From Cyanidioschyzon merolae (lineage: Eukaryota), in NCBI GenBank assembly GCA_000091205.1, contig AP006490.2: DNA of 64,000 bases, one strand, 5' to 3'. The notes beneath the pieces are model-generated. The model saw only the letters and a program-made list of their open reading frames with translations. It was not told where the DNA came from and ran no database searches. The position numbers were made by a program, and so were the translations under genes. This document shows positions 2,578 through 64,000 of this stretch, piece by piece (the first letter of the stretch is position 1; every line of letters begins with the position of its first letter).

Positions 2578-2910
2578 ATGGGCGCCTCTGTTTCTCAACA
2601 GCTTGTTCGTGTGATCCTGAAAACACTGGAATACGGTTGTGAAAAAAGCGTCCTAGTTCACGTCCGCCCATTTTCCACCGAAATCGCAACGACAGCGTTC
2701 TTGGAACGTCACTATCCATATGAAGCACAGGAAAGTCGGTTTCGTTTTTTTATCGATGATACCTTCGTTGGGCGATTCTGTTGTAGCGTATATGGGTATT
2801 CGCGGAACAGGGTGCCCGTGTTATGCACGACTGAACTCGAAGAGAACGACGACATCATCATTTGTTGGAGCTGTAGTGGAATTATTTGTCGGCCTCAGTT
2901 CCGCCCGTAA
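2578..2910 (+). pseudogene. Tc1/mariner-like (DDE_3) transposase fragment
   Basis: The translation LVRVILKTLEYG...FFIDDTFVGRFCCSVYGYSRNRVPVLCTTELEENDDIIICWSCSGII resembles Tc1 transposase (HTH, the first-D region 'sDEskF', then the ...VWG.FS.G region). It is ~45% identical to the fragment in the inverted-repeat arms (59067..59465 and 63092..63490). The ORF is truncated. Confidence 0.5.
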
Positions 2911-3299
2911 AGCAGGCCCGTACAACAGCACCAACGACTTTGTCGAATCATTGAGGACGTTTTCCTGACGTCTGGCGACGCCCTTACATTAGGAAAAGGT
3001 GGTATTTCACCATTACCCTTCGTGTTCGAGCTTTTGCTTACTCTATCGGGGTAGAGCAGCACTTCATTCTTCCGGACGCTCCGTGTTTCAACTGCATCGG
3101 ATCAGTGTTCTCCATCATGAAACATAACCATCGCTCCACTGGGCGAATCGCTAAATCGTCCAGCACACGGTGACATGCTGGGGCATATTTCCTCATTCTC
3201 GTGCAATCTCTTCTTCTTCTGGGAAGATCGTCACCTACTGGCATTAGAAAGTGCAATCATTTTCAGAACAAAGGAGAGAACGATCTGGGATGTACACTT

Positions 3300-3520
3300 C
3301 AGAGCGTCGAGAAGGAGACAAGGCAGCGGAGCGCTTTGGTGATAGAGAAGTATAGAGAGCTCGCAATGCAGCAAGTGGCACGGAGGGCACGAGCTCTACC
3401 AACCCCTGCACTGACGAGTTCCACCAAAGGCAATAAACGCATGGAGTTCGTGCACTAAGAATTCAACGCCGCCATCTATATCAGACGATATGCAATGCTG
3501 AAGACAAGACCTAGGGGCGT
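3300..3520 (+). pseudogene. Fanzor/TnpB-like RuvC-III remnant
   Basis: ...LTSSTKGNKRMEFVH then a stop, then EFNAAIYIRRYAM continues the RuvC-III signature (D/N-x-NAA-x-NI) seen intact in copies c and d. Broken by an in-frame stop. Confidence 0.5.
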
Positions 3521-3739
3521 GACGCGAGCCAACGTTATGAAGCAGTCTCTCAGGCTCGAAGTGTGTCTGGATGAAACCCGAAACCGATAGCATCGATCTG
3601 GTCGAAAAGTGCTGGAAGGTGGCGTCTGCGCGTGGGTATGCATTTACCCCACATTGTCGTACAAAATACTTGCGCCAATCATATGTAGTTCCCTTGCGCT
3701 TTCACCTGCTCTCTGTGGGCTATTCTTCGAGCAGTATGC

Positions 3740-5677: not shown

Positions 5678-8600
5678 GGCGCACTGCCTTGTGCTCGACG
5701 CAGACGAACGCTGCCCAGACATGACCGGGTGTATCCGAATGAATAGGAGTCGTTCAAAACGTTCTGCGTAGAGCTGTGAATTCGGGGACACCTGGACTAG
5801 GACGCCTGTTCTGGTCCTGTTTGTTTTCTTGCAGGTACTCGGTAAAAGGAATGTTTCATGTTGATGGGAAAGAGGCTGCCGAGAGACTCTGTGGTGGAGT
5901 CACCGCCGGCCTGTGAAAACTGACCTTACCAGTCTTTCTCAGTATTGGAAGGGTAAGCGGGTGTATAAGCCACGCTTCCCGGAGTCCATAGTCTGAACAT
6001 GGTGTACCCCAATGAGAATGTATTAAACTCTATCTACACAGTTTGCTCCTCGTCAGCTCATTACAGTTTACAAATTTTTCTAAGGTATGCTGCGAGAAAA
6101 TGCAGAGTTTGTGAAGTTTCCGTATCTTTGGATTGAACATCGAGGAAGCGACGCAGGTACGCAAAGCCAAAAGCACCTATCTACCGCAGACTGTCGCGCG
6201 TTGCACAACTCAGTATCAGCTTCATAGGGAAACACGAGTGCTTACACTAGGTGCGACGGGCGTTCATCTGACTCGAGGCGACTTGATTCTAGAAAATGCT
6301 AGCCCTTCACACGGGTAATCCAAGTAGGGCAAACGTGGGTTGGTAATGAAGAAATAAGCGAACATAGCGACGACAGCAGTCCGAGCGGTGATTCCGTCGC
6401 ATGGTCTCTTACAAATCCGCACAGAGACAGTGTTTCTGAACACCGCGTACTTCGTCGAGGCACTGACCGTCGATTCTCCTTCGCATAGAGTTTTGTGCTG
6501 TTCTCGGACAGTGTGGCTCTCCACCTCTCAAAGTCGGCAAGGCGTATTCAGCTAGGATTCGCGTTGAGATGCTTTTCGTGTCGACCGATTTTCTCTGGTT
6601 CAATCCAGTCGAAGAGGTATTCGACTGTTGGTGTGGAAAGCCGTTTCTACGCTCATGTATTGAGAAAAGTTCCGTCTGCATACGGGGCACCTTTCTTCAA
6701 CAAGACGTTCTTCGGAACCTTCACCAGCATTGAACTGATTTTTTGCGTTATTGCTCATGCGTGGGCGGAACCAGAAAGGTGCGCTTCGGTCCGAGCGCTT
6801 GCTCGCTGGGAGAAAATCACGAAACGCAACGTGGAGTATAGTAGGTAAGCAGATGCAAAATGATACTTTCAGTCGGGTCGTCCACCCAGAAATTCGGATT
6901 CCTGAGAGAAACGGATACGGGTTACAGTGACCATATCAATGCTACACTGCCAAATAGAGGAGAAGGAGAAGAAAACGCCGGGCATAGAAAAGATACGATC
7001 CTTCCAAAAAGAAGACATGGAGGAACAGGAAGCATGAGCTCGCTTAGAAGCTGGGCGCAACTATGGGTCGCAAAGCCTCTTACTCGAGGAACGCTTGCCT
7101 TGCGCCACCCGCCGTGAAGCAGCTCGGCGAGCAACTGGTCACAGCAGTTCCAGTCACGTGGCTACAAGCTATCCATATTTCTCACTAATTTTTCGATGAG
7201 GCCTATGTGCGACAACAACAGCTGCTTTTCGGGGTGGACGAAGCGAAATGGCCGGATCGTTGGATCAGGGATTTCCTGACACAATTTCCTGGATACTTTA
7301 AAGCGTCACCGTGCCCCGCTGACGATCGGAATATATCCAGCGCAGGTCGGAAAAGTATCAAATCGATCGATGAGATTCGTTCTGAACCGGTCAAGATGTG
7401 CGAACCGAGAACCTTTTTGATGAACTTGGATTCCAGGCTGAAGAGTATACTGCCCGTTCCGTGAGCTCCACAGCACAAGGACAATGCCGAAGATCTGAAC
7501 GGAAACCATGTGAAGATGCTCTGCTACTCCAGGGCTCCATATTCTCGGAGTTTATATCTGACAGACACCAGTCAACATTCCAAAATGTGGAATGAAGGCG
7601 TCAGAACGCATGCCGACACCCCGTGCATCGTTTCGAGCGGAGGGCGGTGCTTTGTTTGCATCATTCAGCGAGGACGTGAGCTTCCGCATCGCTCATGCGG
7701 ATGACCCTTGGCAGTGGTATCTGAGGGTGCGCGGGGGTCGCCCGCGGTGTCCGTTGTACGGGAGCGAGTAGCTTGCATTCACCAATTTCTCCAACGGGTT
7801 GGAACGGGAAACGACGCACAAGTTGCGACGTTCGGTGGTATCTAAGGGCGCTGGTCGTGTTGGTGCGCGCCTGGGATGCACCCCTGGTCCATCGCCACGC
7901 TCGTGTTGAGAGCTCTGGGATTCATGCTCTCCGCTGCCAATCGACGAATTCGGGGCGGTATTCACGCATAACGTGCACGGTTGCACGCTGGAACTACGAG
8001 AGAAGGAGAGCGTGAAACGTAGCCAGCTGATGGAGATGGTGCTCGGTAAGCTAGCCAAGCATTACGTGGCGAGGAGTTTGAATACGATTGGCTTGCAATG
8101 ACGTGATTCCACCATCAAGAATGCACCCTAGAGGATTTTTCTCTGGGGTCTGAACGGTTCGAGCAGTATCCAGAAAAGTCTCGTGTTTTCTGAGCGTGTG
8201 GCGGCTTTGAATTTTGCAAAGTCTCGAAGAAGTCGTTTGGAGCTCGATTTGGGCCTTTTCTGATGCGTTGAAAACTTTCGAAGAAAAAAGGCAGTGCTCA
8301 GAAGCAAGAAAATTGGTTTCTCACCTAGTGCCCGGCACTGGTAGAGCACGGTCAGCGATCGAGCAAGGCTGGAGCACCCCATATATATTCCGGAACCGGA
8401 TTTTCCTGACGATTGGAGAACGCTAATAGTGGTTCATATTCGATATTACAGAGTATACGCAGGGCCTGGAAAAGGGTCGTCTTGGTTTATAACGCGTTGG
8501 GTGAAAATGCTCAGCTTTGTATGATTGCCATCACCCGCCTAGGCTCTGCGGGTCGCGCAACATACTCGTTAATGCCACGTTCCTCCGGGGGATTCCGGAT

Positions 8601-16964: not shown

Positions 16965-18249
16965 TTGCAGTTGTGCAGTGACGTGCCGCAGCAGAAACCT
17001 GTACGCTCGATGAGACGCAAACGTTTGTCTGTGGAAGCTGGTCGGCACGCTGCGACGTCCGCGCTGGCGATGCGCCCCGTGCTGTGGATGGCGCCCGCTG
17101 CTGCGCACTCAGCGACTTCGCATCTTCCACCACCGAGCGTCGCCAGTGTTGCCTAACGAACGTTTAATGACGAAAATTTCCCGCAAAATGTGGATAGCTA
17201 GCAGCCTTGTGTCCGGAACTCCGATGAAGAGCTTCCTGACGCGGAGCTTCCAAGCGAATGAGGCCCGGTGAGCCTTCCCCGAATAAGAAGCTTTAAGATC
17301 CCAAATGACGCCCTGTATATTTCCGTTTCACAGATGTGAACAACTCGTGTCATGATCCTTGAGCGTAAAAACCGATTTTGACAGCAGGAAAGAAGCCTAG
17401 GACATGCCTGAGCCAAAGAGAATAGGCTGTACCGAAGAGCGACTATACGCGATCCCCAACTGCACACTCCGTGACGGATTTCGAGGGACAGACAGCATCG
17501 GTATCTAAATGCACGACAGAGGATTACGGGAAGGAAAAGCCACAGCGAGTGCCTCGACTGAGGATGCGGGATTGAACAGTTCTGTTCGTGTACCGGCGTG
17601 TAGGCATCTACGCGATTGAATCGCTGCCCGGGCTGATATTGTCGTCATTCTCACTTGTCGCTTTTTTACATGCAGCGATTCGCGGTGCCTTCAGTACCCA
17701 TATTCAGTTCTACCATATTTCCCGAATGATGTCTCATCGACTGAGACGAGCATCTGTCCTTTCTATTATCAGCGGTCGCGTCTCATTGCGAAATCGAAAG
17801 TGCGCAATTCGATGCGAAACGGTAGTCGATAGAAGTGTGCTCTTTCTTCGTCCATCTGCGTCCCTTCATTTCGGCTCGTATCAACATTGCGGAAGCTTCA
17901 CATTCAGTAGCTCCTTTGATAGTATTTCTTATGAAAGATATGAAGTGGAACGGATCGAAGAAGATACAATCAAGTAAGTAGAGCTTGATACGTTGGTTTT
18001 TGAGTGCACGACGATCAGAATAGGTACAGCGAGAAGGATCATGTACAGTGTTGCTGCAGTAGAAATACTGATTTGTTCAAGAATCATCGTTTTCCCGAGC
18101 TCGCAATGTAAGCATACAACCTTTCAGCAACAATTCTCCAATCTACAGGACAGATTCCTTGTATTCAATATCAGCGAGAGATAGAAACACAAACAAAAAG
18201 GGAACGCAGGTCCACGTACTCCTGAATTCTCTGCTCTATTTAGCAACCG

Positions 18250-19096
18250 TCGGCCTCTTTAAAATAAGTTGCACTGCTTCCTCGAACCGCAAAAGCAAAT
18301 CAACGACTCAGCCGGTTCTCCCGGTAGTTTCGACCACGGCTTCAAACACGAGGAAATTTTGCCTCAAAGCGGCTGCTCCAGCCGCACCGCAAGAGGCGCA
18401 CCCCACGGAGCTTGCAACCCTTTTGGACGTAGCTTACAATCAGTTGGCTCGGACTTCCTTTCGGTGCAGCTATTCCCATTCTAACCATGGCTCGAGGCCG
18501 CATCCGCTCTTGTATTCTCTAACTGCACTTGAGTTCCACCCTCAGATGCGTATCATCAAATGCTTTTTCGCAGTTTATGGCGGATGCATTCGAAGTGCGT
18601 TCATTTTCAAACATAAAAAATCCAAGGGAAATCTATGGACATCGAAGGCGGGGATCCTCAAGGGCCGTCATTGCCGAGTCCCAGAAGAAAAAACGAAAAA
18701 ACGTCTTATCGCCTACCATCGAGTAAAAAAAGCAAGCGACGACGGCGAAGAAGAAGATGGGAAATAGATGAGAAAGGGTGCTCGCCCGACAGAACGATGA
18801 AGAGACTGTGGTAGCACTGAACCCACCACTTCGAGCAGTCCGTGTAACGGTGAGTCCAACCAGCAGTGCCGCACGGAGGAAGCTCGTGAACCGGGACATT
18901 AACGCTGCCACCAGTACCAGGACATGTGCGGTGCTGAAGACGAGACAACAGGAGCAGATGCGATCCAACTTTTTGGGGCCAGACTCATAGGGTCGACGTG
19001 TGCGCGAGGAAAAACTGAAACCAAAAGCAGGCGGCTCGTACAACTGCCTGGGAGGCGTCTGCGCTTGAGTAGATCTATATTGACCCTCCGTGGTGG
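18250..19096 (+). mobile_element. Fanzor/TnpB-like element remnant (copy e), 5'-truncated
   Basis: ORF 18778..18990 reads TVVALNPPLRAVRVTVSPTSSAARRKLVNRDINAATSTRTCAV, a decayed RuvC-III matching TVVAYRSRVLAILALMSSTRGNKRMEFVNRDFSVAINIRTCA of copy c. The upstream DNA at 18500-18700 aligns with 45800-45960. The 3' module is hairpin CAGGC..GCCTG followed by GGGAGGCGTCTGCG at 19027-19063. The 5' boundary is approximate. Confidence 0.5.
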
Positions 19097-19378
19097 TGAA
19101 ACGTTTTCGTTATGCTGACAAATATAGGTAAGTTTCGTTGAGTGGAGGATCAAACGCGCAATCTACGCAGATCAACGGGGCATGCGTCGCACTTCCACAC
19201 GGGCGTCACCGGAATGCGCGCCATTGCGGTCGGAGAACTCCACGTTCCGCGTGCAAAGGCGGACGCGTTCGCTGCGCTCCTGAGTGCTCAAGTTCCGCAA
19301 CTGGTTTAGGAGCCCTTTCGACGTCACGCAGGCTCTGTATTGGAAAGAGCTACTTCTAGGGCTGTCCAAGAACTTCCC

Positions 19379-32026: not shown

Positions 32027-33739
32027 AAAAGCTCCAAAGGAATGATCCGTTTTCCCGTTAGTGCGGGCGACTTGCTAACCAACGGCTGTGACCGCAGCGC
32101 CAATCTGCATTGCGCTCGGCATTACTGGATCTCATGCGCAGCCCAGGATTCCGCATCTCGACGAGATGGATTTTTCCATCAACGCAGAGTTTTTGATGTA
32201 TTTTTTTCAGTACATGGTCTCCCGAACGCAACAATGGTGCGTGACGGACTATGGTGTCGTACCCAAACTTCTGCACTCGCATCCAACAAAGGAAAATGTA
32301 TTGCTGCAGTTATTGCGTTTCCGAACGGTGCGGGTGGCAGAAGATCGACGCGTGTTTGCTGTACAATTGAGTCGCTGAAAGGCTGAGTGCTCATTTGATC
32401 AACAGTATTATCGATTATCCCGGAGAAATTGCGTGAAAATTCTGGAAATGTGTGAGTTCAGGGGCCTTAACGGAACCCTAACGAGAAAAATGCATCAAGG
32501 TTACGTTCCAATTAGCGCTGCTTGGTGCAAGAGCGCTCTAGCCCGAAAATGTCAATGAGCCAACTAGATGTCTCGCAGTCTGGTGTCTAATACCGGCTCA
32601 ATTCTCTGTCCAGTTTTCGCACGTCGGGCGCAGAAGCCGGTGCAGCAAAAGCTGCCCCATTCTACGCCATGGGAATATATTACTTTTGCAGTTACTATGA
32701 ACACACTGGCTCGAGACGCATGAGCATTCGTGGAAACTGCTCAGAACCCCCGAATGAGACAAATTTTTCTAGTTCTGCAGATGCTCCGAACGACTCGTAA
32801 AATGCCCTCGCTTGCGGTGCTCAAATCGAGTGGAGACATGCTGCCGACGGATAAAAAAATGGTCAAGGCCATTGATCCAATGTACCCCTAGTGGACCTGC
32901 ATGCTTGTTTCGTACGAATCCATACAATAAACTAATAACGTGATTGTGCCCCGATCGAGAGCCATAATCAGAGGGAATGGCGATATTCCCCCAGATAGTA
33001 CCAACTTCCATGTAGAAGCAAAAGCAATGCCCACATACGAGTATGGTTTTGCGATTCGCAAGATTTCGAACCTAGCAGTGAGCGACCTATGCATGTAATT
33101 TCGAGTCAGCCGAATCTGTATCATTGCCATGAACTAGTTATGATGTGTTTACATAGGTAGCTTATTCGTGTAGATCGGGAATCGCGAAGCGTTCTAGACG
33201 ACAAATAGTTTGTATAGGCTCGTGCTCTACAGAGCTGAACAGGTCTATGAAGTCTATTATGGGTCATCTGAGCAGGTTATGAAAAGGCGTATGAAAGGTG
33301 CCTTGCGAAAAGGGTCCGGTGGTGCGGAGATGGTTAAGGACTTTGCTGCTGGAACGTTTAGGGCCACTACACGAAAGCTTCGTGGATTGTACCTACTGGT
33401 ATTCTTCGCCTGGTTTCGCATCATGCCTATACGACAAGCAATACGTAATTTATAACAGAAAAGTAAATTGAATTGAGCTCATTTGCTGAAAACCTTTCTA
33501 TGAAGAATACTATGTGGTTTCAGATGACAACGTTGAAGCGGTCGCTGTAAACAAAATAAGGCCTTTGTTAGAACGACGACTCTTGGTATCTGTTAATGAG
33601 GTACCACCTTTCAAACTCTGAGCGGTTTCGCTTATCATGCTCTCAAAAGCATTTAAGGTGGGTGCCGGCATTGACATCGTCTGTGTGAATATTTGCATTT
33701 TTCGTTGGACATAAAGGCGGCGGTCAATGATACAGACTG

Positions 33740-34450
33740 CTTCACAACTGTGGAGGGCAAATATGTCTCCCTACCCGCAGACCCGTCTCGCTCTTTTTCA
33801 ACCGGCGTCTTGCTATTGTTTTCAGCTTCTCCTTTTAACCTTCGAGTCTGGGAGACTGTCCGACAAAGTTGTCTCGCGTCAGCTCCTCGGGGCCCGACTT
33901 CAGCAGTATACATCGTCGGCTATTGATGGAGGCTTGAAGACTTAGTCCACGAATTCTATGCGTTCACTGCCTCAGGTGGAACTCATCTATGCAAGGATTG
34001 CTCGAACTCGAGCTCACTTTGCCGCCGCGGCCTCGTTATTGTCCAGTCGGGCAAGCCCTCTTTCACGACTTTCTCTCCCGTACTACTTCGTCGTCGTCAC
34101 TCATTCGTCTTCGCTCGATGGTTGGCAAGAAGAGGATTTTCGTCTTTTTCCTAGTCGCACGCGATGACGGCACTCCAGGATCTCAGACTTCCATTCCGAG
34201 AACATTCCCTTGGGTTTTTTGTTTTTGAAAATGAAATCACTTCGAACAAGTATGCTATAAACCTCGAGAAAGCATTTGATTATGCTCACCAGGGGGTGGG
34301 ACACAATTGAGGTGGAGGAATAAAATCCCTTCGTGGACGAATATCCGCTAACGGTTAGAGCTAGAATAAGAAAACCAATACGGAATTGAAGCCGTAAATG
34401 CCAGTGCATACTCTCCGATTCTCCACGCTTGATCCGCTTTTTCGCCATAT
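33740..34450 (-). mobile_element. Fanzor/TnpB-like element remnant (copy b), 5'-truncated
   Basis: Minus-strand frames match copies c and e: IIKCFLEVYSILVRSDFIFKNKKPKG vs IIKCFFAVYGGCIRSAFIFKHKKSKG, and YTAEVGPRGADARQLCRTVSQTRRLKGEAENNSKTPVEKERDGS vs the copy c tail. The 3' module on the minus strand (plus 33745-33805) reads GACGGGTCTGCGGGTAGGGAGACATATTTGCCCTCCACAGTTG. Confidence 0.5.
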
Positions 34451-42112: not shown

Positions 42113-43547
42113 AACCTAATCGTAAAAGAGATGCACGAAACGATTGCAAAGCCACCCAACGGTGCTATGGCACAGCAGCCTCTCCGTGGCACGACCTTCG
42201 GAGCCGGATCACTGAAAGTGACGAGGAACGATCACAAGTGTTACCGTTTGAAACTAAATACGAGCCTCTTGGCTTTCCGGGACCGACCAGAGAAGATGAA
42301 TTCTGACGAAAACCCAGTATTGGAGGAGCGGCGCACTCAGAACAAGACTTTGCAGTGGCATCTGCGATTCGGAGTGCGTATCCATGTGCCCTACATATGA
42401 ACACGAGTGACGCGAGCCATATCTTTTCATAGTTTTGACCAAGGGCGCCGACAAGAGGTTGTAGAGAGAGAAAGAGAACGAGCGCATGGCAGAGCTTTGC
42501 ATAGAAACAGCGGCGGCAAAGGCCAGTCCTCGAACTGGTGGGCCCTGCAGTTGTGCCCGCCCGTGAGCAGCGAGCATTCTAATAGGGGAAGAACGAGGAG
42601 AAACTAACCGCTAACTAGCAACTCGATAACAGTGCTGTTTGACATTGATAGTAAGCGTTGAAAAGGGGAAAGTTTCCGTATCTTCGAAAGCTTACCCTAT
42701 AGGCGGAAGGTCCCGCTAGCCGGACGAGTCTCCAAGGATCGTGCTTTATGCTCCTCCAAGTGGAAGGTGCTGTATTGAAATCTGAGCGGATCGTCCGCAA
42801 CGCAATTCATTCTGGGACTAGGAGCGCGTATGCTGCGTCTGGGCGTCGCCTTGGTCGCAGTGGGCTCTTTGTAGATCGGTTCGCGCTATCGCAGGCTCCC
42901 AGAATAATTATGTACTCCGACGTCGTGTCGGATGAATTACGCCTCGAGCCGACGCCCTCAGTGGAATGGCAATGCCGTCCTGTATCCGTGCAGCATCTGC
43001 TTCAGCGGGATAAGCGCAACGGCGGGTGCTCACGGCAGGCAGTCGTCGCAGGACAGAACGTGCGAGACGACCAGTATATCCGAGAGGAAATATCGGTAAT
43101 GGAACTTGAATGTAAGTGCTTCATGATGCACGCCTTCCCGGAAGCCAGTCTCCGTTCCGAATTCTGGGATCCATCGTAAATGTAAACTTTTTGTCATCTG
43201 CAAAAATCTGCGATTCGGAAGCATCGTCAATAATGGACGCTTCTTTTGCTAGTGTCCTGGGTAGATAGCATCGTCGCTCTCTGAGCATGGCGGTTTTGAT
43301 GTGGTACAGACTGTCGCTATGGCGCTGTGTGCCTGCCTGGATCGCCTCTGTTTCATTCAGCGACAGTACGTCTTTGAGTCCTTGTTCGCGTGCCACTGCG
43401 GGCTTGCGTGAAAGACTGAATATGCGTTTTCCTTATGTTTTCATAGGAACGCGCCCACTGTCTTTTTCTTGAGCGCTTGGAAGACTTGCTACACTTGTTG
43501 CAAAAGAGGGAACACTGTTTCGGCAAACCGGGGAAAACTTGCTGGTT

Positions 43548-45649: not shown

Positions 45650-46387
45650 GAGAGTTGGATAATGTTTTCGGTAATTTTGGGATCCCTTGTTCGTGGTCGT
45701 CGCGAAACATCTGGAGTCCGATGACTTGACAAATTCTGTCGGCAAAGTGTTGAAGGAGCCAACCTCAAAAGACAGCCGAGATTCTATAACGACGTATGAA
45801 TGCCAGAATCCTTCAAGTCTTTCACCTGAATTGCGTTCCAGCCTCAGGAGACTACAATCAAATGCTTTTTCATGGTTTATGGAAGATGAGTGCGAAGTGC
45901 GCTCATTTGAAGAAATAAAAATCCAAGGCAAAGGTATAGAAGTTGAAGCCCACGATCTTGGGGGCCCGCTGGCACCGGATTTGGAGAAACTACGAAAAAA
46001 AATCCTCATCTCGCCGACAATCTTGCGAAGAATAGCGAACGACGAAGAAGAAGAGAGGAGGTAGACGAGAAAAGGTGTTTGCCCTACTGGACAATGACGA
46101 GACTGTAGTGGCATATAGGTCACGAGTTCTAGCAATCCTTGCATTGATGAGTTCAACCAGAGGCAATAAACGTATGGAGTTCGTGAACCGAGACTTCAGC
46201 GTCGCGATCAATATCAGAACATGTGCGTTGCTTTACACGAGTCCCGAGAAGCTGGCCCAATTCCTTCTTCGTGGGACAACTTCTCAGGCTCGAAGTGTAC
46301 AAGGAGAAACTGAGACCGATAGCACTCGACCGGTCAAAAAGGACCGGGAGGTGTCTGCGTGTGGATATTAGTTACCCTACACGGTCG
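45650..46387 (+). mobile_element. Fanzor/TnpB-like element remnant (copy c), 5'-truncated
   Basis: ORF 46075..46371 carries an intact RuvC-III signature (GNKRMEFVNRDFSVAINIRTCA). The 3' module is CCGGTC-AAAAAG-GACCGG hairpin at 46330-46347, then GGGAGGTGTCTGCGTGTGG, ending ~46387. Frameshifted relative to copy d in its tail (46223..46507 frame). Confidence 0.55.
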
Positions 46388-46606
46388 AGACACATTTTTT
46401 GTTTCGTTGGCAGTGAACTGCAGGAATCGAGCGAGTGGTTCCGCGCTCCACTCTTATTCAAGACAACGTTCCTCGCGGATTCCCAATCACAGAGAACGAG
46501 AGGTTGACAAGATTCAAGTATTGAAAACTGTCGCTCCTTACTTAAGCACACACTTAAAGCTCGAAGCCTTTGAGTGAACGAAGTGCAGAAGAGTCTGTTT
46601 GCCTCT

Positions 46607-51501: not shown

Positions 51502-54500
51502 CGCTATGAGCCGGCACTACAGTGAGCGAGAAGCGTCGTTCCTGCCAAGTTTGGGGCGTAGGACACCATACCTCTTCCACCGCATCGTACAAGACGAGAT
51601 TCTTGAGACCGTCGACGCAGTAAAGCCTTCCTCTCACGCGCTGGCGCTCGTCCTGGAGCAGCACTAGAAGTTCACGGTGAAGCAGTGACTCAAGGAACGC
51701 CCTTCCTTCGTTCGCATTGTGGACGCCCATGAGTTTGTAGACGTCTCACCTGTAAAGCGAGATGCAAGAGCCTACGCAGCTACCGCTCTCAAAGTGAAGC
51801 ACATAGCTTGACGGCTAGCGCATTAAGATAACATTAATAGTTTGGATCTCTATTGTATGGGAACTCCGACCAGACGGAAGCTGCACACAAGCAGCAGCAC
51901 ACAGCCTGCCGTTCCTTGCACTCGAAAAAAACCTCATTTGTCTGCAGTGTTCCACGGGGGCGCCAGCCTCCCTCGTGGAGTGCGCACCATGGTGGCGTTC
52001 GCGAAAAACTTAATGTCCTCTTGTCTGAAGCCTGAAATCCCGTGTATTTATGGTGTATCAGTGCAAGTCTGAAAGGACATGCCCGTATACGCAAGCTCTG
52101 CCCGTGGTTAACGAGTGAAACTATGTTGTTTGACGCTTGCGATGGCATTGTTTAGCCTCCCTTTCACGGCCCGATCTAAGCGACTGTATCCCAAGCGCTC
52201 CAGCGAATGCCTCTGCTACGCCTGACAAACCGGGAAACCATGTCGTTAGATTGATCGAGCCTCCACATTCTCGGGTTTCATCATAAACTGGAACCGGTGG
52301 CTCGTAGGGACTCGTGTCAAGGTATTCATCCAGCCTTCACGCCGGGTGTTCATCTCCAAATGGAATTGGTTGAACGGAGGAGCGTCCGTGCTAAAGTCGG
52401 GATCTCCCAGTCGCTTTTATGTAGAGGAGTGAAATGCAGAACACGTATACAAGCACATTCCTCTCGGTCTTATTTATTTTTCCCATTGGTAGTCAACAAA
52501 ATCACTGTTGCGTTTGTACTAGAGAAAGACTGCAGAAAGACCTGATGCCCTCATTGCTGGACATCGAACAAACCGGCTTTACCTCTACAAGCCAGTTATT
52601 TGATGCTAAGCATGTGGACCTACCGCCCTTCTCGTAGTCCTCATTCTGAGCACCGAGCACCAAAAGCAGTACTCATCAGTCGCTATCTACACGACTGTCT
52701 CCTCCTCAATCATTTCCACTCGATTCTTTTTCGAAGAAAGACTACTGAGGAACCCACAAAACGGTGATCACCCTTTTCGTCCATACGAAGGAGACAAAGA
52801 AACACGGACTGATAGCAATAAAATCGCGCTTCTAGAGGAGACCGTCGAGGTTTTTTGCAGTATGCTGTCGCTTTGCGAATGAAATGAGAACGTTCGTTAC
52901 GGTACGGACGGTTGTTCGTCTCATTTGATGCGGCTTCATTCAGGAGAAATGCTAGACCTATTAATAGGTAATCAGAAGAGTGCAAGCGAATGCTATTAAA
53001 GCCGAGAGGAGCGAGAAGGACGATAACAGCTCTAATCGCGATTCAAACATATGGTTGCGTCCAAATTGTCCAATGGACATTATTGTGCAGCACCGTATCC
53101 TTCACTGAAGCACTCATCCAGTCTTTCTTCATACATTCTTGTGTCCTGCTATCAGACAGCATCGATTCCCTTGTCTTAAAAGAGGGCAATTGTACGCAGG
53201 CAGGATTCGCACTCAGCTGCTCTTCGTCCCAGCATATTATCCCTGGTTGTGTCATGTCGTCAGCATTAACCACCTTGTCAAACGACACTTCTACCCTACA
53301 GCTGCAGTAGACGAGTCAATCGCAACTGTTGCACCATTCTTCGAAGAGTCTTTGAAGGAGAATTTGTGTCCAGTGTTCATTTGTCCTGAACTGATTTGTG
53401 GCTCCTCTGCTTGTCGCCGGGAAAGAGCCGAAAGGCTCGCAAAGTTTCGATATCTTTCTCGCGATGTGGTAAGTGACGAAGATATTCCTGAAGATTGATA
53501 AGCTACAGCGTTGGACATGATGGAGTGCGCAATGCCCGTGCTCATACTCCTTCCAAAAGAGCATAGAACGTGTGAAGAAAATCTATTCTCTACGATTTTC
53601 ATCGATGAGTTCAGGTTGACACACGCATTACGAGCGCGGATGCACGCTGAAACTGATACGGAAGTCGACAGTGCAACAGGAGCCGATACACGAGCTGTTG
53701 TATGGTAAACTGACCAACAGCGAGATTACGAAGCCATCAAAGGCAAGAGACTTGATATTACGTGATTTCAGTAGTAATTATGCGCACGAGCACCTTCTGC
53801 ACAGAGACTTGAAAGCTCTGATCAAAATCCGGAAATGGTCCCGGCCTCCAGAGCGCCCAGTTCCTTTATGCCAAGCGAAATTTCGAGCAATTGTTTTTTG
53901 CACAGTGTGGTCACGAAGTTGAAACGAGAATGATTTGCCATTATAAGAGTCAATTGCAAAGAGAGAGGACGGTGGATTCTCGCACGGAGTGAGGTACTAG
54001 AATGGTACGGTCCACATTTCAAGGCTGGAGCGCTATTTATCCAACGCAAATGGCGTCGCTGGGCACTTAGCAGACGATAATGGTGTTCATTTGTTCGATA
54101 TTACTGAGCATGCATATAGCTATCCCTGATTTGGCAAATTTTAATTACACTCATCGATTCTGCAGCCGAAACTCTACGACATCTGGCCTTCCCAAAGCGC
54201 GCGCGTCAGTCATATTATCGAAAAGACGCTGGTCTGCTACAATTTGGCTTGCTTGTTCTGCTCCCCGATCGAGACTCTTCGTAAGAGTTTGCTCGCAAAT
54301 ATCAACCGCTCTGGCTGTATCGAACGTCGCTTTGGTACAGGCGTCTATGATGTTGATGTCCGCAAGGCCCTGCTAAGCTAAAACCAAACGTTTCACGACG
54401 ATCGAGGAAAGCTTTTCAAACGAAACGCTGCATATTCGTGGGAGAGTTTGTATCGAGATTAGGCGTATTGCACCGATCGAGCATCGAGAAATAGACGACG

Positions 54501-56337: not shown

Positions 56338-56422
56338 GCTGAGAACCCGCTGCCGACAGCGAACGCCTTTCAAAAGAAAAACGTTGCTGCCGGCGGTGGA
56401 CAGGAGCAGCGAGGAAGCCGCC

Positions 56423-57252
56423 CTAGACAAGACGTCTCCAACTTACGTACAGACGCCTCCCAGTCTCTTTCGACCGGCCACCCACTACTGGTTCCAACTT
56501 TTTCTCATATAATCCTACCTTAAGCGGTTGTCCAACAAAATATTCTCTTGTCAACTCCGGAGGTCTTCTTTCCATCACCGCACATTTCCTTATATTGATA
56601 GCGGCGTTAAAGTTTCGATTCACAAACTGCATGCGTTTCTTGCCATTGGTAGTTGGACTCACTAGTGCAAGTAGTCCACGAACTTTCGTCCTCCTTTCCA
56701 CTTGCTCTTTCGTCAGCGCTCCGAACATTTTTATATCCTCAGGGGTCTGCTGGCACTTTTCATCTCCAATCTCTGACGTTTACACCCCAATTGGTGGTGT
56801 GTATTGGTCGTTCGGAACTCATCTATCGGTATCGTGACGAAACGGTATGCGCACTCCTTGTACGCTCGTGTCGTTGGAGATGGCGCACACCTTTTTTTCG
56901 ACGCCCAGCGCCTTGCTCCGTATGCCACTACGAGCCTCTGACTCTTGTGCTCCTTCAGGGCGCTCAACTGATTGAAAAAGTTCGCGAGCGCGCGCCGCTT
57001 CCCACAATACAGGTTCACACGCAGAGGAGCCCACCGGCGATTTGTATACTCTTTCCACAGCGCCTCCCAATGAGCAGCGCGAACTTCCATGAATTTCAGA
57101 AAAGTCTGAAAGTCCGCTCCGCGGCTCGTCACCTCGCTCATAGCTTCCAGGTGGTCCTTCATTCCTTCGTTCCACATCTCGATTTTCTTCCTCGCATTCA
57201 TCATACCGGATTCTCGATAGTATCTCGCTCTCGAGAGCTTTAAAAGACGCAT
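56423..57252 (-). pseudogene. Fanzor1/TnpB-like RuvC nuclease C-terminal region (RuvC-II + RuvC-III), frameshifted or intron-containing
   Basis: ORF 56731..57252 ends ...QRLVVAYGARRWASKKRCAPSPTTRAYKECAYRFVTIPIDEFRTTNTHHQLGC. This aligns with ISDra2 TnpB, as I recall it, at ..VVEDL...LEYKAKWYGRELIIADRFFPSSKLCSNCG. The canonical RuvC-II E is replaced (VVAYG) and a D-E sits in the pre-zinc-finger IDEF position, which matches the Fanzor1 pattern. ORF 56423..56728 carries GKKRMQFVNRNFNAAINIRKCA (RuvC-III, D/N-x-NAA-x-NI). The two ORFs are in different frames, and the zinc-finger cysteines are largely missing. Confidence 0.6.
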
Positions 57253-58556
57253 GTCTTTCTGACTTAAGTTGCCTTCAATGCCTCTTCCGCGCGCTTGGGT
57301 GCTGCGATGGCTATAATATTCGTGTTTCTGGGGTCCGCGCCAACGACAACGTCGTTCTCATGTACTTCTCGCGTCGCATGACCCGCCTCCTTCTCATCTT
57401 CATGCTTCGCCGCATCAACGACAAAGTCGGTCTCCTGCACCTCCTGCGTCGCAGGTTCCGCATCCTTCTTTTCTTCATGCTTCGCCGAGTGCGAAGCCGA
57501 AGACGGAACTGGACGATCCGCCTTCAAGAGCCGATAGTGTGCACATACGGGTACTCCATCGCTTTCGGTTATCCCCGTGAATATCTTTTTCTTGCCCTTA
57601 TTGAGACGTTTGAAGTCGGATATAGTTTTCCAAGAAGTCTAGAGGTTTCCACCAATAGATGCCTCCCCGCTTACATCTAACTCCGAACTGATCTCCAGCA
57701 TTACGTTGTGAATGTCGCTGGCGTCGATTGTCACAAAATGTGACTTGACGCCGCCGAGAGCAACGACGCTGAAGCGCCTCTCCGGAAACACAGCCATCCG
57801 TTTCGCCGACTCTCTATTTTCCCCCTACTCATCTGCAGTTCGGCCTTGCGTTCGAATTCTCGGTTCAGGAACACGAAATAGCGCAGGATGAGGGGATAAT
57901 ATCTTTTTCCATATCTGATACCTATTCTGCTGGGCTGACCAGCCCCAGGACCGCACGGTGCTCTTGAGCAGCCGCAGGGATCACAGAAGCTGCATTCGTG
58001 CTCTTGGTTGATGTCTTCTTGTCGACAAATTCGATCTCCTGTCCATTCTTACTATCGTTCGTGATGCTGGCAATGATGGTCCATCTCGCCCAGTGTGAGA
58101 CGCCCAAGTAGAGAGCAAAATTGGAGCGTTTCATGAAGCGTTCCAGGTTCATGGCCATATGGGTCTTTAGGTTCGTGAGGGACTTGATCGCCCCGTATTC
58201 GTAAATACGCGAGTCACCCCTCTATCGAGTACCGTTGAAGCGGTAGTTGGAGTGATGTTCGTGGAGGGCATGTAATCGCTCATTTCTCATCGACATTTAC
58301 CCTGTGCCAAATATTAGGTCACCAATAAAGGTCTTGTTGAAAAACTCTTCCGGAATCTCGAATATTTTGATGTGCGTGACGTCGCGATACATCTCCCTCG
58401 CCATATACATCAGTCCCAAAGAGGCGTAATTAACACTCCTGGAGTACGACTCCACACGGTTTCTGACGGCCTTTTGCGTCTCTTGCTCGTAGGGGTCCTT
58501 GATATGTCCAAGAAGACAGGCGTTCACTACCATCTCGTCGTACTCTCATCTTTCAT

Positions 58557-59698
58557 GCAGCATGTGACATCGGACCTCCTGCATCTGCTTCTTCGTTTTC
58601 TCGTGTTCCTCTTTGCTCGGCGCGGTTTTTCTTTTTTTCCCGGCGGCCGGCAACATCGGCCCTTCAGGATCCCGACTTGCATGTGCGCTGCTTTCCTTTG
58701 GCGTTTTTATTTCGTCAAGATGATCGCACGTCTTCTTGCTCTTAGATGGGGCCTTCTCGGAGGGAGGGGGACTTTCGCAAGAAAAGCGACATGTGCCCCC
58801 ATGTTTTAGCGTGTGCAGAACGCTCAGCGATTTACCCAGCGCAGTGTTCATCAAAATTCTCGATAGAAAACGCTCCTTAGATGCGGCCGAACCACGGCGT
58901 GTACGAAGTAATGAGAAGCAACCCTATCCCTACAGATTCGGCAAAGACTCGAACGCAAGGGGAACGGTAAAACATCACGTTGCCCGACAGAGGGATGTTT
59001 CCAGACGTCAGGGGAAGAGTCTGCAATGATTCGACGCAGTGGTCGGTACCGTTGTATGACCGCTATCTACGAGCGAAGCTGAGGCCACCAGATGAATCCA
59101 CTCCACCCGTACCAGATGATATTCTCGTTCTCTTTGAGTTCGATCATACACACTATGGGCGCCCTGCTCCGCGAATACCCATGTACGCTCCGACAGTATC
59201 GTCCGAAGCAAGTCTCATTGACTAGAAAAACAAATCGATGCCCCTGCGCTTCAAACCGATCGCGACGATCCGAAGACGCTGTTGTTGCGATGTCGTTGGA
59301 CGATGGCCGAGCGTGAAATTGGTATTCGTTTTTCCGACTGTATCGCAGTGATTTCAGGACCACACGAACAAGCTGGTGAGTAAGAGAGACACCCGTTGTG
59401 GCTTCTATCATCGCTTTTGCCTTCCACGCGGTGATGAATCGGTTGTTTTTTACCACGGACCCCAAGCACGCTTTGTGAATATCGGTTTTTTGATACGGAG
59501 CGGGTGTAGTGGTTTCTTTCGGTGTTCCTCAACCAGCTGAGTACTCTCGAAAGACTGACCTGAAGGAGGAATACATTACTTGCACGCTTCAGTCAAGGAT
59601 ATATATCCTACATGCAAATCGCCTATGTTCTATACGGTACATTGCAGAGTGATATCGATCTCCTCCTATACACTGCAGCAGGGGTGAAACGTAATTGA
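58557..59698. repeat. left arm of a long inverted repeat (identical at the protein level to 62859..64000)
   Basis: All ORF pairs mirror with x+y=122557 and identical translations: 59251..59532 with 63025..63306, 59067..59465 with 63092..63490, 59092..59316 with 63241..63465, 58980..59225 with 63332..63577, 58736..59029 with 63528..63821, and 58372..58809 with 63748..63993. The inner junction, checked base by base, is TCAATTACGTTTCACCCCTGCTGCAGTG. The arm probably extends further left; the window end limits the comparison. Confidence 0.9.
59067..59465 (-). pseudogene. Tc1/mariner-like transposase fragment (in left inverted-repeat arm)
   Basis: ...ITAWKAKAMIEATTGVSLTHQLVRVVLKSLRYSRKNEYQFHARP...HRFVFLVNETCFGRYCRSVHGYSRSRAPIVCMIELKENENIIWYGWSGFIWWPQL shows an HTH followed by the DDE_3 first-D region. 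The first D is mutated to N (NET, against DDT in the 2578 copy). Truncated. Confidence 0.5.
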
Positions 59699-59996
59699 GT
59701 TGAAAGAGCGCAGCTGGGAACATCGACTGTGTCGCAGTTCGCGCGCCCTGTACCGCCATTGAAATCATCGCGATCGCCGCGCTAGCGCGGGACACCATCG
59801 ATCCGATCCGCATGGCAGCTCGCGGGACGTCATCGATCCAACGGAAAACTATTTTTCGACGGACTGCTCGCATCATGAGGGTCTTTGAGAGCCTCAAATA
59901 TTAGGCTGAAGTGAAGTTTCGCTAACAATTTGGGTCCTTGCTGCTTTAAGTTGAGGTGTTTTGGTTTAGTGAGCACCTCATCTTGGGACGAATTGG

Positions 59997-62300: not shown

Positions 62301-62858
62301 ACATCAGCACAAACCTGAAGATGCAGCCAGTCGTGCATATTGTGAAGCGGTCTTCTCGTTCCTAGTTGTTACTGCAGGAGATTGCTTGTCCGGCTGATGC
62401 TGGGTCTCACGTATGTTAAGGGCGAGAGCAATCAAAGTGTAACCTCCGTCGAATGACAAAGGGAGCGCAACGATTGCACCTCTGTGGAACGCGGAACTCA
62501 CTGCTCTCAACGCTTCGCAGAACGACGTGGGCCATCAGCTCGGTGCGCATGTTTGCTTTGCAGCTCTCGAGAATCAAATGAACTGCTGGCGTAGCGCAAA
62601 ATAGTGCCCAATTCGCGCGCTAGTGCTTGCGTAAATTTACAAATCGTCGGGATAGAGAATTTCTCAAGTCGGCGTCAGAACAGCCCGTTCTGCCACAATC
62701 CTACACGGTGCAGCTCCACATAAAACCCTTTTCCCAACCGATCCACGAATCCGACAAGACTTTTGCTCACTTGTGGCGCAATTCTGCGAAACATGGACTG
62801 AGCAAAGGAGAAGAAGGAGCCTGTCGCTTATTCTCGTGTACAACTAACGTCTTTCGAA

Positions 62859-64000
62859 TCAATTACGTTTCACCCCTGCTGCAGTGTATAGGAGGAGATC
62901 GATATCACTCTGCAATGTACCGTATAGAACATAGGCGATTTGCATGTAGGATATATATCCTTGACTGAAGCGTGCAAGTAATGTATTCCTCCTTCAGGTC
63001 AGTCTTTCGAGAGTACTCAGCTGGTTGAGGAACACCGAAAGAAACCACTACACCCGCTCCGTATCAAAAAACCGATATTCACAAAGCGTGCTTGGGGTCC
63101 GTGGTAAAAAACAACCGATTCATCACCGCGTGGAAGGCAAAAGCGATGATAGAAGCCACAACGGGTGTCTCTCTTACTCACCAGCTTGTTCGTGTGGTCC
63201 TGAAATCACTGCGATACAGTCGGAAAAACGAATACCAATTTCACGCTCGGCCATCGTCCAACGACATCGCAACAACAGCGTCTTCGGATCGTCGCGATCG
63301 GTTTGAAGCGCAGGGGCATCGATTTGTTTTTCTAGTCAATGAGACTTGCTTCGGACGATACTGTCGGAGCGTACATGGGTATTCGCGGAGCAGGGCGCCC
63401 ATAGTGTGTATGATCGAACTCAAAGAGAACGAGAATATCATCTGGTACGGGTGGAGTGGATTCATCTGGTGGCCTCAGCTTCGCTCGTAGATAGCGGTCA
63501 TACAACGGTACCGACCACTGCGTCGAATCATTGCAGACTCTTCCCCTGACGTCTGGAAACATCCCTCTGTCGGGCAACGTGATGTTTTACCGTTCCCCTT
63601 GCGTTCGAGTCTTTGCCGAATCTGTAGGGATAGGGTTGCTTCTCATTACTTCGTACACGCCGTGGTTCGGCCGCATCTAAGGAGCGTTTTCTATCGAGAA
63701 TTTTGATGAACACTGCGCTGGGTAAATCGCTGAGCGTTCTGCACACGCTAAAACATGGGGGCACATGTCGCTTTTCTTGCGAAAGTCCCCCTCCCTCCGA
63801 GAAGGCCCCATCTAAGAGCAAGAAGACGTGCGATCATCTTGACGAAATAAAAACGCCAAAGGAAAGCAGCGCACATGCAAGTCGGGATCCTGAAGGGCCG
63901 ATGTTGCCGGCCGCCGGGAAAAAAAGAAAAACCGCGCCGAGCAAAGAGGAACACGAGAAAACGAAGAAGCAGATGCAGGAGGTCCGATGTCACATGCTGC
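62859..64000. repeat. right arm of the long inverted repeat (second, inverted copy of the Tc1-like/Fanzor-like element; truncated by the window edge)
   Basis: Mirror image of 58557..59698. Contains the Tc1-like fragment (63092..63490 +) and the start of the KRKT-rich ORF (~63703 onward, open to the window edge). Confidence 0.9.
63092..63490 (+). pseudogene. Tc1/mariner-like transposase fragment (in right inverted-repeat arm)
   Basis: Amino-acid sequence identical to 59067..59465 on the opposite strand. Confidence 0.5.

Follow-up and report, generated by a model that had tools for sequence, protein, structure and literature searches.

Copies assigned to the Fanzor1 transposon CMe-1A in a 64-kb window of the Cyanidioschyzon merolae genome: decay, deletion derivatives and a candidate transposase module

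CMe-1A is a Fanzor1 transposon of Cyanidioschyzon merolae that was described by Bao & Jurka (2013; Mob DNA 4:12) and is held in Repbase (PMC3627910). Its consensus is 3169 bp long, the first 635 bp being made up by a module named TE-N2_CMe, and approximately 150 genomic copies lie at about 80% identity to it (PMC3627910). The CMe-1 protein is a 734-aa Fanzor1 encoded by one exon, entered as "734 (1)" in the supplementary table; no transposase was listed, no terminal inverted repeats (TIRs) were reported and the classification was given as unknown (PMC3627910). A second described system, PUl-1 of Pythium ultimum, holds a Mariner transposase and a Fanzor1 within 24-bp TIRs and has a TA duplication (PMC3627910). 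In Fanzors, Pro or Gly replaces the canonical RuvC-II Glu (PMC10530073), and the RuvC-II site is rearranged, with an alternative Glu just upstream of the zinc-finger region (PMC10530073, PMC10711439). Prokaryotic TnpB (e.g., of ISDra2) and Cas12f resemble the CMe-1 family in having a single RuvC nuclease with a D..E..D triad, and are distantly related to it in fold. However, their RuvC-II Glu is in the canonical place, their RuvC-I reads D-hydrophobic-G, their host is prokaryotic and their companion is a TnpA Y1 or a serine recombinase.

The repeated loci in the window (the whole 64-kb stretch of DNA that was analysed) are almost certainly dead copies of CMe-1A/CMe-1 in the nuclear genome of C. 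merolae 10D (Table 1). They agree with CMe-1A in genome, family, all protein motifs, multi-copy state and an identity of about 80% to the consensus. Since CMe-1A was described in the C. merolae genome in 2013 (PMC3627910), these Fanzor1 relics are real but not new; the family is already known, and Fanzor function has been on record since 2023. The agreement has limits. The first ~790 bp of the CMe-1A consensus (TE-N2_CMe and a spacer) are absent from copies d, a and g, in which a ~900-bp decayed-transposase module directly follows the left-end motif, and copy d has an imperfect TIR whereas the CMe-1A paper reports none (PMC3627910). The left-end motif, located at consensus ~790, also starts copies a, g, b, c and e. 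The 5' 635 bp of CMe-1A is attached to no copy in the window, and the window copies are therefore regarded as sister subfamilies of 'A' rather than strict 'A'.

Table 1. Positions of CMe-1-family copies and associated features in the window.
Feature	Position	Strand	Description
Copy a	2264..3676	+	Left end and transposase remnant (2392-3128); of the Fanzor gene, just a C-terminal remnant (3279-3563); internal-deletion derivative
Copy f	7414..8197	+	Old, heavily decayed Fanzor1 relic, RuvC-I to RuvC-III; PIDEFG still readable
Transposase-type fragment SVDETSFGKYGRTEYGY	17682..17750	-	Weak, E=0.003
Copy e	18516..19120	+	Non-autonomous derivative of ~600 bp; consensus ~788-1069 fused to ~2851-3092
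Copy b	33722..34319	-	Same ~600-bp derivative type as copy e
Solo TE-N2_CMe-like element	42588..43198	-	blastn to consensus 2-640, 78% identity
Copy c	45818..46412	+	Same ~600-bp derivative type as copy e; VNRDFSVAINI kept
Copy h	53524..53883	+	Old C-terminal Fanzor relic (IFIDEFRLT...)
Copy d	56362..59707	-	3.35 kb, more complete than any other element in the window
Right end, copy d	56362..56391	-	TIR arm overlapping terminal hairpin AACGTTTTTC-TTTT-GAAAGGCGTT
Fanzor1 (CMe-1) pseudogene, copy d	56423..58688	-	516/734 residues identical to CMe-1, consensus-frame projection
RuvC-III FVNRNFNAAINI (VNRNFNAAINI), copy d	56591..56626	-	Catalytic Asp to Asn (NRD to NRN)
IPIDEFRTT, copy d	56806..56832	-	Relocated (alternative) RuvC-II Glu
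LVVAYGARR, copy d	56908..56934	-	Gly in place of canonical TnpB RuvC-II Glu
RuvC-I VVGADPRNTN, copy d	57318..57347	-	Catalytic Asp kept; family DPG reads DPR
Acidic repeat, copy d	57335..57484	-	2 x 75-bp unit, 25 aa each, just upstream of RuvC-I
Tc1/mariner/IS630-like transposase remnant, copy d	58841..59642	-	Between left end and Fanzor gene; also in a, g
Left-end TIR arm CTTTCAACTCAATTACGTTTCACCC, copy d	59682..59706	-	17/25 bases = reverse complement of 56367-56391
Copy g	62850..64000	+	5' part of inverted d twin, cut off by window end

At least eight loci from one TnpB-like family (a to h) were located within the 64 kb by tblastn, with the copy d ORFs and intact relatives as queries. The initial annotation, made from the letters alone, had named five loci (a to e) and a solo end. 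These five are real and homologous, with tblastn matches at all of them (3279-3563 in a, 18829-19035 in e, 33942-33772 in b and 46075-46363 in c, besides d) and homology confirmed at the DNA level; the total has to be raised by f, g and h, and copy g is probably the solo end. Deletion has reduced copies a, b, c and e to the left end, the first ~50 and last ~90 codons and the right end. They lack ~1.8 kb of the Fanzor gene and are 64-72% identical to the CMe-1A consensus over the retained parts, and b, c and e have one deletion junction in common. Copy f has an amino acid identity of only ~26-36% to CMe-1. Copy g is identical to d over positions 59698-58557 of the latter, and two mismatches lie at 59699 and 59701. 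The two copies are near-identical and stand in inverted orientation on either side of a PP2C gene. Exact-protein look-ups for the chromosome past 64000 yielded a single 3.2-kb contig, which stops at the repeats. The proposal that the family was or is proliferating here has partial support: near-identity is confined to the d/g pair, and most copies are judged to be old, because they are 66-84% identical to the consensus. No tRNAs were found by ARAGORN.

Copy d is ordered as left end, transposase remnant, Fanzor1 pseudogene and right-end hairpin, its 5' boundary being the point where the resemblance among d, g and a ends. It matches consensus positions 855-3169 of CMe-1A at 84.2% identity over 2295 columns in local alignment (80.6% by blastn). 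Its reading frame is broken by five frameshifts (consensus 922, 1696, 1779, 2249 and 2771) and five in-frame stops (aa 48, 131, 156, 256 and 354); the start ATG has also gone. Divergence differs little between the three codon positions (0.177/0.124/0.170), in line with neutral decay. In metagenome copies, divergence at the third codon position is higher (0.187 vs 0.118 and 0.094), and this excess is not taken as selection because the loci were chosen by protein similarity. The 25-aa acidic repeat occurs in one to six units among family members, and the metagenome loci differ in how many they have. Copy d is a family member of full length, but a broken one. The earlier statement that every copy is interrupted holds, with frameshifting indels and stops in d, internal deletions in a, b, c and e and multiple stops in f and h, and an active nuclease cannot come from any copy in the window.

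The catalytic motifs were compared across an alignment of 73 sequences (A2). The family RuvC-I reads GADPGNTN, in which D421 is invariant and the P and G are at least 90% conserved. G559 of VVAYG is invariant, as is E592 of DEFRT, which lies 33 residues downstream. Both VVAYG and the block AYKECAYRFVTIPIDEFRTT quoted in the initial annotation are present in copy d, and its reading of a Gly at the canonical RuvC-II site and a relocated catalytic Glu was correct; the aligned counterparts of IPIDEFRTT in PpFz1 and SpuFz1 are LIDEFRTSS and LLDEYKTSS, respectively. The RuvC-III consensus of the family is FVNRDFNAAINI, which fits xNRDxNAAxNI, and the peptides quoted for this signature were found again (VNRNFNAAINI in d, VNRDFSVAINI in c and VNRDINAATST in e), with the correction that the catalytic Asp of d is mutated. 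The D-E-D triad is invariant or nearly so across these 73 diverse members. In contrast to the published Fanzor/TnpB motif, the CMe-1 clade has no C4 zinc finger (CxxC...CxxC) in the stretch from the Glu to RuvC-III, which reads TSYTHHELGCTLQRVEMEKC ... RGLLALVST (THHELGC...); in the wider clade a single Cys is left of it, in RGLLWC. Judged from these sequences, the zinc finger of the CMe-1 clade is degenerate rather than canonical.

Sequence profile and the predicted fold of a relative both place the encoded family in Fanzor1. In hmmsearch against PDB sequences, profile A2 matched PpFz (6.3e-22), SpuFz (6.5e-15) and GtFz (3.1e-8) over 300-390 residues, and the alignments bring the catalytic motifs into register; only Fanzor1 was matched at E<1, and the next match had E=1.9. 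A shallow 29-sequence profile (A1) gave only a chance match to angiogenin in the PDB (E=0.54). Pfam gave nothing significant on the six ORF pieces of copy d or on seven intact close relatives. In more distant relatives, Pfam Cas12f1-like_TNB (formerly OrfB_Zn_ribbon) was found below threshold (E = 7e-4 to 0.09). The structure prediction suggested in the initial annotation was carried out on a relative, P0255, which is ~40-54% identical to CMe-1-like proteins and was modelled in place of a window copy. The AF2 model (pLDDT 88.8, pTM 0.87; a run on a shallow alignment with pLDDT 36.9 was discarded) matches solved Fanzor1 in its predicted WED, REC and RuvC fold. Foldseek placed SpuFz, GtFz and PpFz first (E~1e-16, TM 0.52-0.72) and the top seven matches were all Fanzor1, with Cas12 enzymes (Cas12o, Cas12f and others) only distant (Cas12f at E~1e-4). 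The CMe-1 family aligns with SpuFz1 (8GKH, 9CEU-9CEZ), PpFz1 (9CF0-3) and GtFz1 (9CER-T) at DPG, at the DEF/YxTS that holds the relocated Glu and at NRDxxAxxN; sequence identity is only 13-15%.

The transposase remnant of copy d is 44-45% identical to a better-preserved metagenome relative at locus L003 (tblastn, E=2e-43). A further relative, P0404, scores 31.6 bits with Pfam HTH_Tnp_Tc3_2, just over the cutoff of 31.5 (E=2e-7), with weaker matches to HTH_Tnp_IS630, HTH_33 and HTH_32; the window copy itself matches HTH_33 only (E=0.04-0.08). In L003, VDETCFG, MDNVAFYHS and ITPYGTxFN follow one another in DDE order, as read by eye, and Pfam gave no DDE_3 match for the 5'-module transposase. Compared with the PUl-1 Mariner transposase it is collinear but barely alignable (BLASTP, 21% identity, E=0.058), and tblastn of the latter against the window gave nothing significant. 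PUl-1 and copy d share the order and orientation of TIR, transposase, Fanzor1 and TIR and are of similar size (3.6 kb vs 3.35 kb). However, PUl-1 has a TA duplication and none is seen at d, whose TIR is weak.

The score of the 25-bp imperfect TIR of copy d was reached in 0 of 2000 shuffles, and no TIR above chance was found in a, b, c or e. Copies d, g and a show no target-site duplication, TA or otherwise. The right-end hairpin of copy d has a minimum free energy (MFE) of -9.6 kcal/mol (z=-3.2). Across 55 family copies this hairpin occurs in two sequence versions with a median MFE of -9.0, and z is below -1.5 in 36 of them. RNAalifold predicted no pairs on 57 right ends, and Rfam gave no matches. 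Two small post-stop hairpins in the 3'-UTR were 80.9% paired vs 79.9% in shuffles, so covariation, which was not significant, is not claimed. The transposase module, the imperfect TIR in d and the right-end hairpin are details missing from the 2013 paper.

A bacterial IS200/IS605 or IS607 TnpB could have entered the assembly by contamination or recent horizontal transfer, and the RuvC-III pattern xNRDxNAAxNI, common to TnpB, and the sub-threshold Cas12f1-like_TNB matches in distant relatives would suit such an origin. However, the elements are flanked by eukaryotic single-exon genes (RuvBL1, CPSF73, APC5, RCC1 and PP2C), and the RuvBL1 ORF at 36431-37909 is a letter-for-letter match to C. merolae 10D protein XP_005536013.1/BAM79727.1. 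A TnpA-type ORF is lacking, the family carries DPG and the relocated Glu with Gly at the canonical RuvC-II position, and its best sequence and structure matches are to eukaryotic Fanzor1 and not to TnpB. The exact C. merolae protein, the A2 profile matches and the Foldseek ranking lead us to reject a bacterial origin as exceedingly improbable, and the initial annotation was right to favour a eukaryotic Fanzor1, here on a nuclear chromosome. That the motifs come from an unrelated protein family and resemble RuvC by chance has an equally slight probability. The empty Pfam searches on the window ORFs and the failure of profile A1 in the PDB would agree with it, but it is rejected on the A2 matches to three solved Fanzor1 proteins with their catalytic motifs aligned and on the match of the relative's predicted full-length fold.

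The initial annotation had left open whether the loci are relics or genes with introns that an ORF scan cannot see. Fanzor genes have acquired introns in some eukaryotes (PMC10530073), but the CMe-1 ORF as published occupies one exon, and the consensus that was proposed for reconstruction exists as CMe-1A with an intact 734-aa ORF (PMC3627910). Measured against this ORF, the breaks in copy d are deletions of 1 bp and 10 bp together with five stops due to point mutation, in an otherwise collinear coding sequence, with no inserted segments; its substitutions are spread evenly over the codon positions and its RuvC-III catalytic Asp has become Asn. The missing part of the gene in a, b, c and e likewise counts against functional genes. 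C. merolae has very few introns, which also speaks against this explanation. Functional, intron-containing genes are thus very improbable, and the relic half of the earlier alternative is retained.

Going by what is established for Fanzors (Saito 2023; PMC10530073; PMC11423790), intact CMe-1 would be an RNA-guided DNA endonuclease with one RuvC site, formed by the D of DPG, the relocated E of DEFRT and the D of NRD. Its guide would be a putative omega-RNA whose template is the 3' end of the gene together with the right end of the transposon, and cleavage would take place at sites adjoining a short motif. The protein may serve transposon homing or retention rather than the catalysis of transposition. 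Transposition itself was most likely carried out by a Tc1/mariner/IS630-type DDE transposase, with decayed remains in the d, a, g subfamily, where, in the predicted layout, the transposase is preceded by an imperfect 25-bp TIR and followed by the Fanzor gene, as in PUl-1. Copies d, a and g and the metagenome loci L003 and L004 may represent the ancestral autonomous form of CMe-1, i.e., an imperfect-TIR Tc1/mariner/IS630-type transposon with a Fanzor1 passenger. Separately, intact members of the clade may be active, zinc-finger-less, heat-tolerant RNA-guided nucleases, because the D-E-D triad is invariant despite the loss of the C4 motif and the host is an acidophile living at 42-45 °C. Taken jointly, these two proposals are tentative, with a likelihood somewhat short of even.

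The Fanzor1 family proved recognisable from raw sequence alone, down to the relocated catalytic Glu, which provides a calibration point. The canonical zinc finger appears to have been dispensed with in the CMe-1 clade, which bears on minimal Fanzor design. The map of the window leads from one autonomous-type element to ~1.4-kb and ~0.6-kb non-autonomous derivatives. If the proposed ancestral form is correct, a family left as "unclassified, no TIRs" in 2013 would gain a class, and the near-identical d/g pair would imply very recent mobilisation or gene conversion. For this family, whose means of mobility had been left unassigned, the analysis puts forward a plausible partner transposase and a TIR.

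The TnpB/Fanzor-like copies in the window are, judged by sequence identity within the same genome, members of CMe-1A, the family given for Cyanidioschyzon merolae by Bao and Jurka (2013; PMC3627910), who named Fanzor1 and Fanzor2. CMe-1A was described as ~150 copies, ~80% identical to a 3169-bp consensus that encodes CMe-1, a 734-aa single-exon protein; no terminal inverted repeats (TIRs) were reported, the target duplication was undetermined, the class was unknown, and the first 635 bp were assigned to another repeat, TE-N2_CMe (PMC3627910). When the consensus and protein were taken from the supplementary files of that paper, copy d, the most complete element, aligned to consensus 855-3169 with 84.2% identity over 2295 columns (80.6% by blastn); for copies a, b, c and e the alignment is partial, at 64-72% identity. 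A solo TE-N2_CMe-like repeat is also present; TE-N2_CMe-related pieces likewise adjoin Fanzor copies in a metagenome locus (L001). The frame-corrected C-terminal 316 residues of copy d matched 261 proteins, the best of them 72% identical and all from metagenomes. The observation in the initial annotation is real and its interpretation correct, yet the finding has been known since the 2013 publication.

The surroundings contain long single-exon eukaryotic genes (RuvBL1, CPSF73, APC5, RCC1, mitochondrial-type RF-1, NifS and PP2C). The RuvBL1 ORF exactly matches BAM79727.1/XP_005536013.1 of C. merolae 10D, encoded on a 739,753-bp record; a protein search with it gave a match at 99%, and its nearest named relatives there are from Cyanidiococcus (81%) and Cyanidium (65%). 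The 645-aa product of the ORF directly downstream of copy a contains a xyloglucan fucosyltransferase domain (E=2e-12) of GT37, a plant-type glycosyltransferase family, here in a red alga. In the PP2C ORF, a (AACAGCAGC)5 repeat in the N-terminal region encodes SNS repeats, and the strand opposite this low-complexity coding stretch can be read as poly-Cys or poly-Ala. Three copies of a 139-bp tandem repeat, 89-96% identical, stand at the window start.

Positions of elements, motifs and neighbouring features in the window
Feature	Position	Strand	Remark
Tandem repeat	86-499
Copy a	2264-3676
GT37-domain ORF	3740-5677	+
Copy f	7414-8197	+	tblastn
Copy e	18516-19120
Copy b	33722-34319
Solo TE-N2_CMe-like repeat	42588-43198	-	78% identical to CMe-1A consensus 2-640
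Copy c	45818-46412
Copy h	53524-53883	+	tblastn
Copy d	56362-59707	-
RuvC-III motif FVNRNFNAAINI	56591-56626	-	copy d
Region without canonical zinc finger	56640-56800	-	copy d
IPIDEFRTT	56806-56832	-	copy d
LVVAYGARR	56908-56934	-	copy d
RuvC-I motif VVGADPRNTN	57318-57347	-	copy d
75-bp repeat	57335-57484	-	copy d
Copy d segment shared with g	58557-59707	-
Low-complexity stretch	59830-60270
PP2C gene	59997-62300
PP2C N-terminal repeat	60201-60245
Copy g	62850-64000	+	inverted twin of copy d 5' part; runs off window

The five loci first named (a to e) are present and homologous, as seen by tblastn of the window with copy d pieces and intact relatives and by DNA-level homology in a self-comparison of the window; their boundaries were refined, and tblastn added three homologous loci, f, g and h. 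Copies f and h, with many stops and ~30-35% amino acid identity to CMe-1 and likewise to its distant relatives, are much older relics than the other copies. Their source may be an earlier wave or a second family; for C. merolae, Bao and Jurka record a single Fanzor1 family (PMC3627910).

Copy d consists of short ORFs that form one TnpB-like protein when joined across frame changes. The initial annotation left two readings of such interruptions, relics or intron-containing genes. Scored against the single-exon CMe-1A consensus ORF, copy d has lost its start codon and carries five in-frame stops, along with five frameshifting deletions (1, 10, 1, 1 and 1 bp), an Asp to Asn change in RuvC-III and one additional 75-bp in-frame repeat unit. 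Its breaks being 1- or 10-bp deletions and stops, the intron reading was rejected; the relic reading held, the other copies being deleted or decayed. Divergence of copy d by codon position is nearly even (0.177, 0.124 and 0.170), the pattern expected from neutral decay. The 75-bp unit, just upstream of RuvC-I, encodes an acidic, predicted disordered 25-aa repeat (KHEEKKEA.PATQEVQ.NDFVV) present in 1 to ~6 units among family members (L005-L084). Copies b, c and e, each ~600 bp long, share a deletion junction (consensus ~1050 joined to ~2840); of the element they retain only the two ends, left and right, with ~50 N-terminal and ~90 C-terminal codons in between. They descend from a single non-autonomous derivative, later amplified. 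The same deletion is found in copy a, which has a 5' module in addition. A published survey of MITEs reported none in C. merolae (PMC3964958). None of the copies in the window is able to encode an active protein.

In independent tests of Fanzor1 membership, Pfam gave no match on window ORFs or close relatives, a shallow family profile matched no PDB sequence, and an AF2 model from the shallow alignment was unusable (pLDDT 36.9). A profile scan of 1.84 billion representative proteins recovered 1723 relatives, many of 600-740 aa, and a deeper profile built on an alignment of 73 of them was used for PDB search and AF2. It matched the Fanzor1 structures of Parasitella (E=6.3e-22), Spizellomyces (6.5e-15) and Guillardia (3.1e-8) with catalytic motifs aligned, the next match having E=1.9. 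The AF2 model of relative P0255 (pLDDT 88.8, pTM 0.87) had the same three proteins as top structural matches (E~1e-16, TM 0.52-0.72), with Cas12 enzymes (Cas12o, Cas12f and others) far behind; Pfam Cas12f1-like_TNB matched relatives below threshold only. Profile and fold thus both place the family in Fanzor1, as had been proposed.

Among the 73 relatives the D of DPG, the G of AYG and the E of DEFRT are invariant, and the D of NRD is kept in at least 90%. The suggested relocation of the catalytic Glu agrees with Fanzors, which have DPG, an inert Gly/Pro in place of the canonical RuvC-II Glu and, right before the zinc-finger region, an alternative Glu (PMC10530073, PMC10711439). The CxxC...CxxC zinc finger, a defining Fanzor feature, is absent from the CMe-1 clade, where THHELGC...EKC followed by RGLLALV stands between the relocated Glu and RuvC-III. 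In wider relatives RGLLWC alone is left there, and the D-E-D triad is still conserved across the 73.

The element start TCTTTCAACTCAATT is shared by d, a and g, and also by b, c and e, and lies at ~790 of the consensus. In d, a and g it is followed by ~900 bp that the consensus does not have. Metagenome contigs (L003, L004, P0404) contain a less decayed relative of this module, which matches Pfam HTH_Tnp_Tc3_2 at 31.6 bits (gathering threshold 31.5; E=2e-7) and IS630-type HTH models more weakly; its VDETCFG, MDNVAFYHS and PYGTxFN are ordered like the motifs of a DDE triad; it does not match DDE_3, and reaches E=0.058 by BLASTP against the Mariner transposase of PUl-1, a Pythium ultimum element. 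The ends of copy d form a 17/25 inverted repeat (reached by 0/2000 shuffles); the short copies show none above chance, and no target duplication was seen at d, g or a. On balance, the d/a/g subfamily seems to keep an ancestral layout of TIR, Tc1/mariner-like transposase, Fanzor1 and TIR, as in PUl-1. No mention of this layout for CMe-1A was found in the published papers covered by the search.

Copies d and g form an inverted pair that flanks the PP2C gene. They are identical from the element 5' end inward (1141 bp visible in the window) apart from mismatches at 59699 and 59701, both within the first ten bases; their flanks are unrelated. The inverted arrangement is probably real, because a 3160-bp JGI contig (L002) that carries an identical PP2C stops exactly at the two repeat edges. 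Other copies show differences of 16-35% while d and g are near-identical; the pair therefore reflects an event of very recent date, be it duplication, gene conversion or mobilisation.

For the CMe-1 family, homology, predicted fold and conserved catalytic residues are shown, and we infer its mechanism from characterised Fanzor1 proteins. Intact CMe-1 would bind an omega-RNA derived from the 3' end of the CMe-1 gene and from the transposon right end, and would cleave guide-matched DNA beside a short motif; such cleavage would aid persistence of the element and would not move it. Among 55 family right ends taken from C. merolae-like algal metagenome contigs, most carry a terminal hairpin, of which there are two sequence versions, CGTTTTTC-TTTT-GAAAGGCG (as in copy d) and CGTTCGA-CTT-TCGAACG, with median MFE -9.0 kcal/mol and z<-1.5 in 36/55. 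Downstream of the stop codon, two smaller hairpins lack significant covariation, and RNAalifold predicted no structure on the family right ends. A structured RNA and a DNA end signal are both compatible with the terminal hairpin, which proves neither. The additions to the 2013 account of the family are modest: the transposase module, the TIR, the right-end hairpin, the missing zinc finger and the d/g twin.
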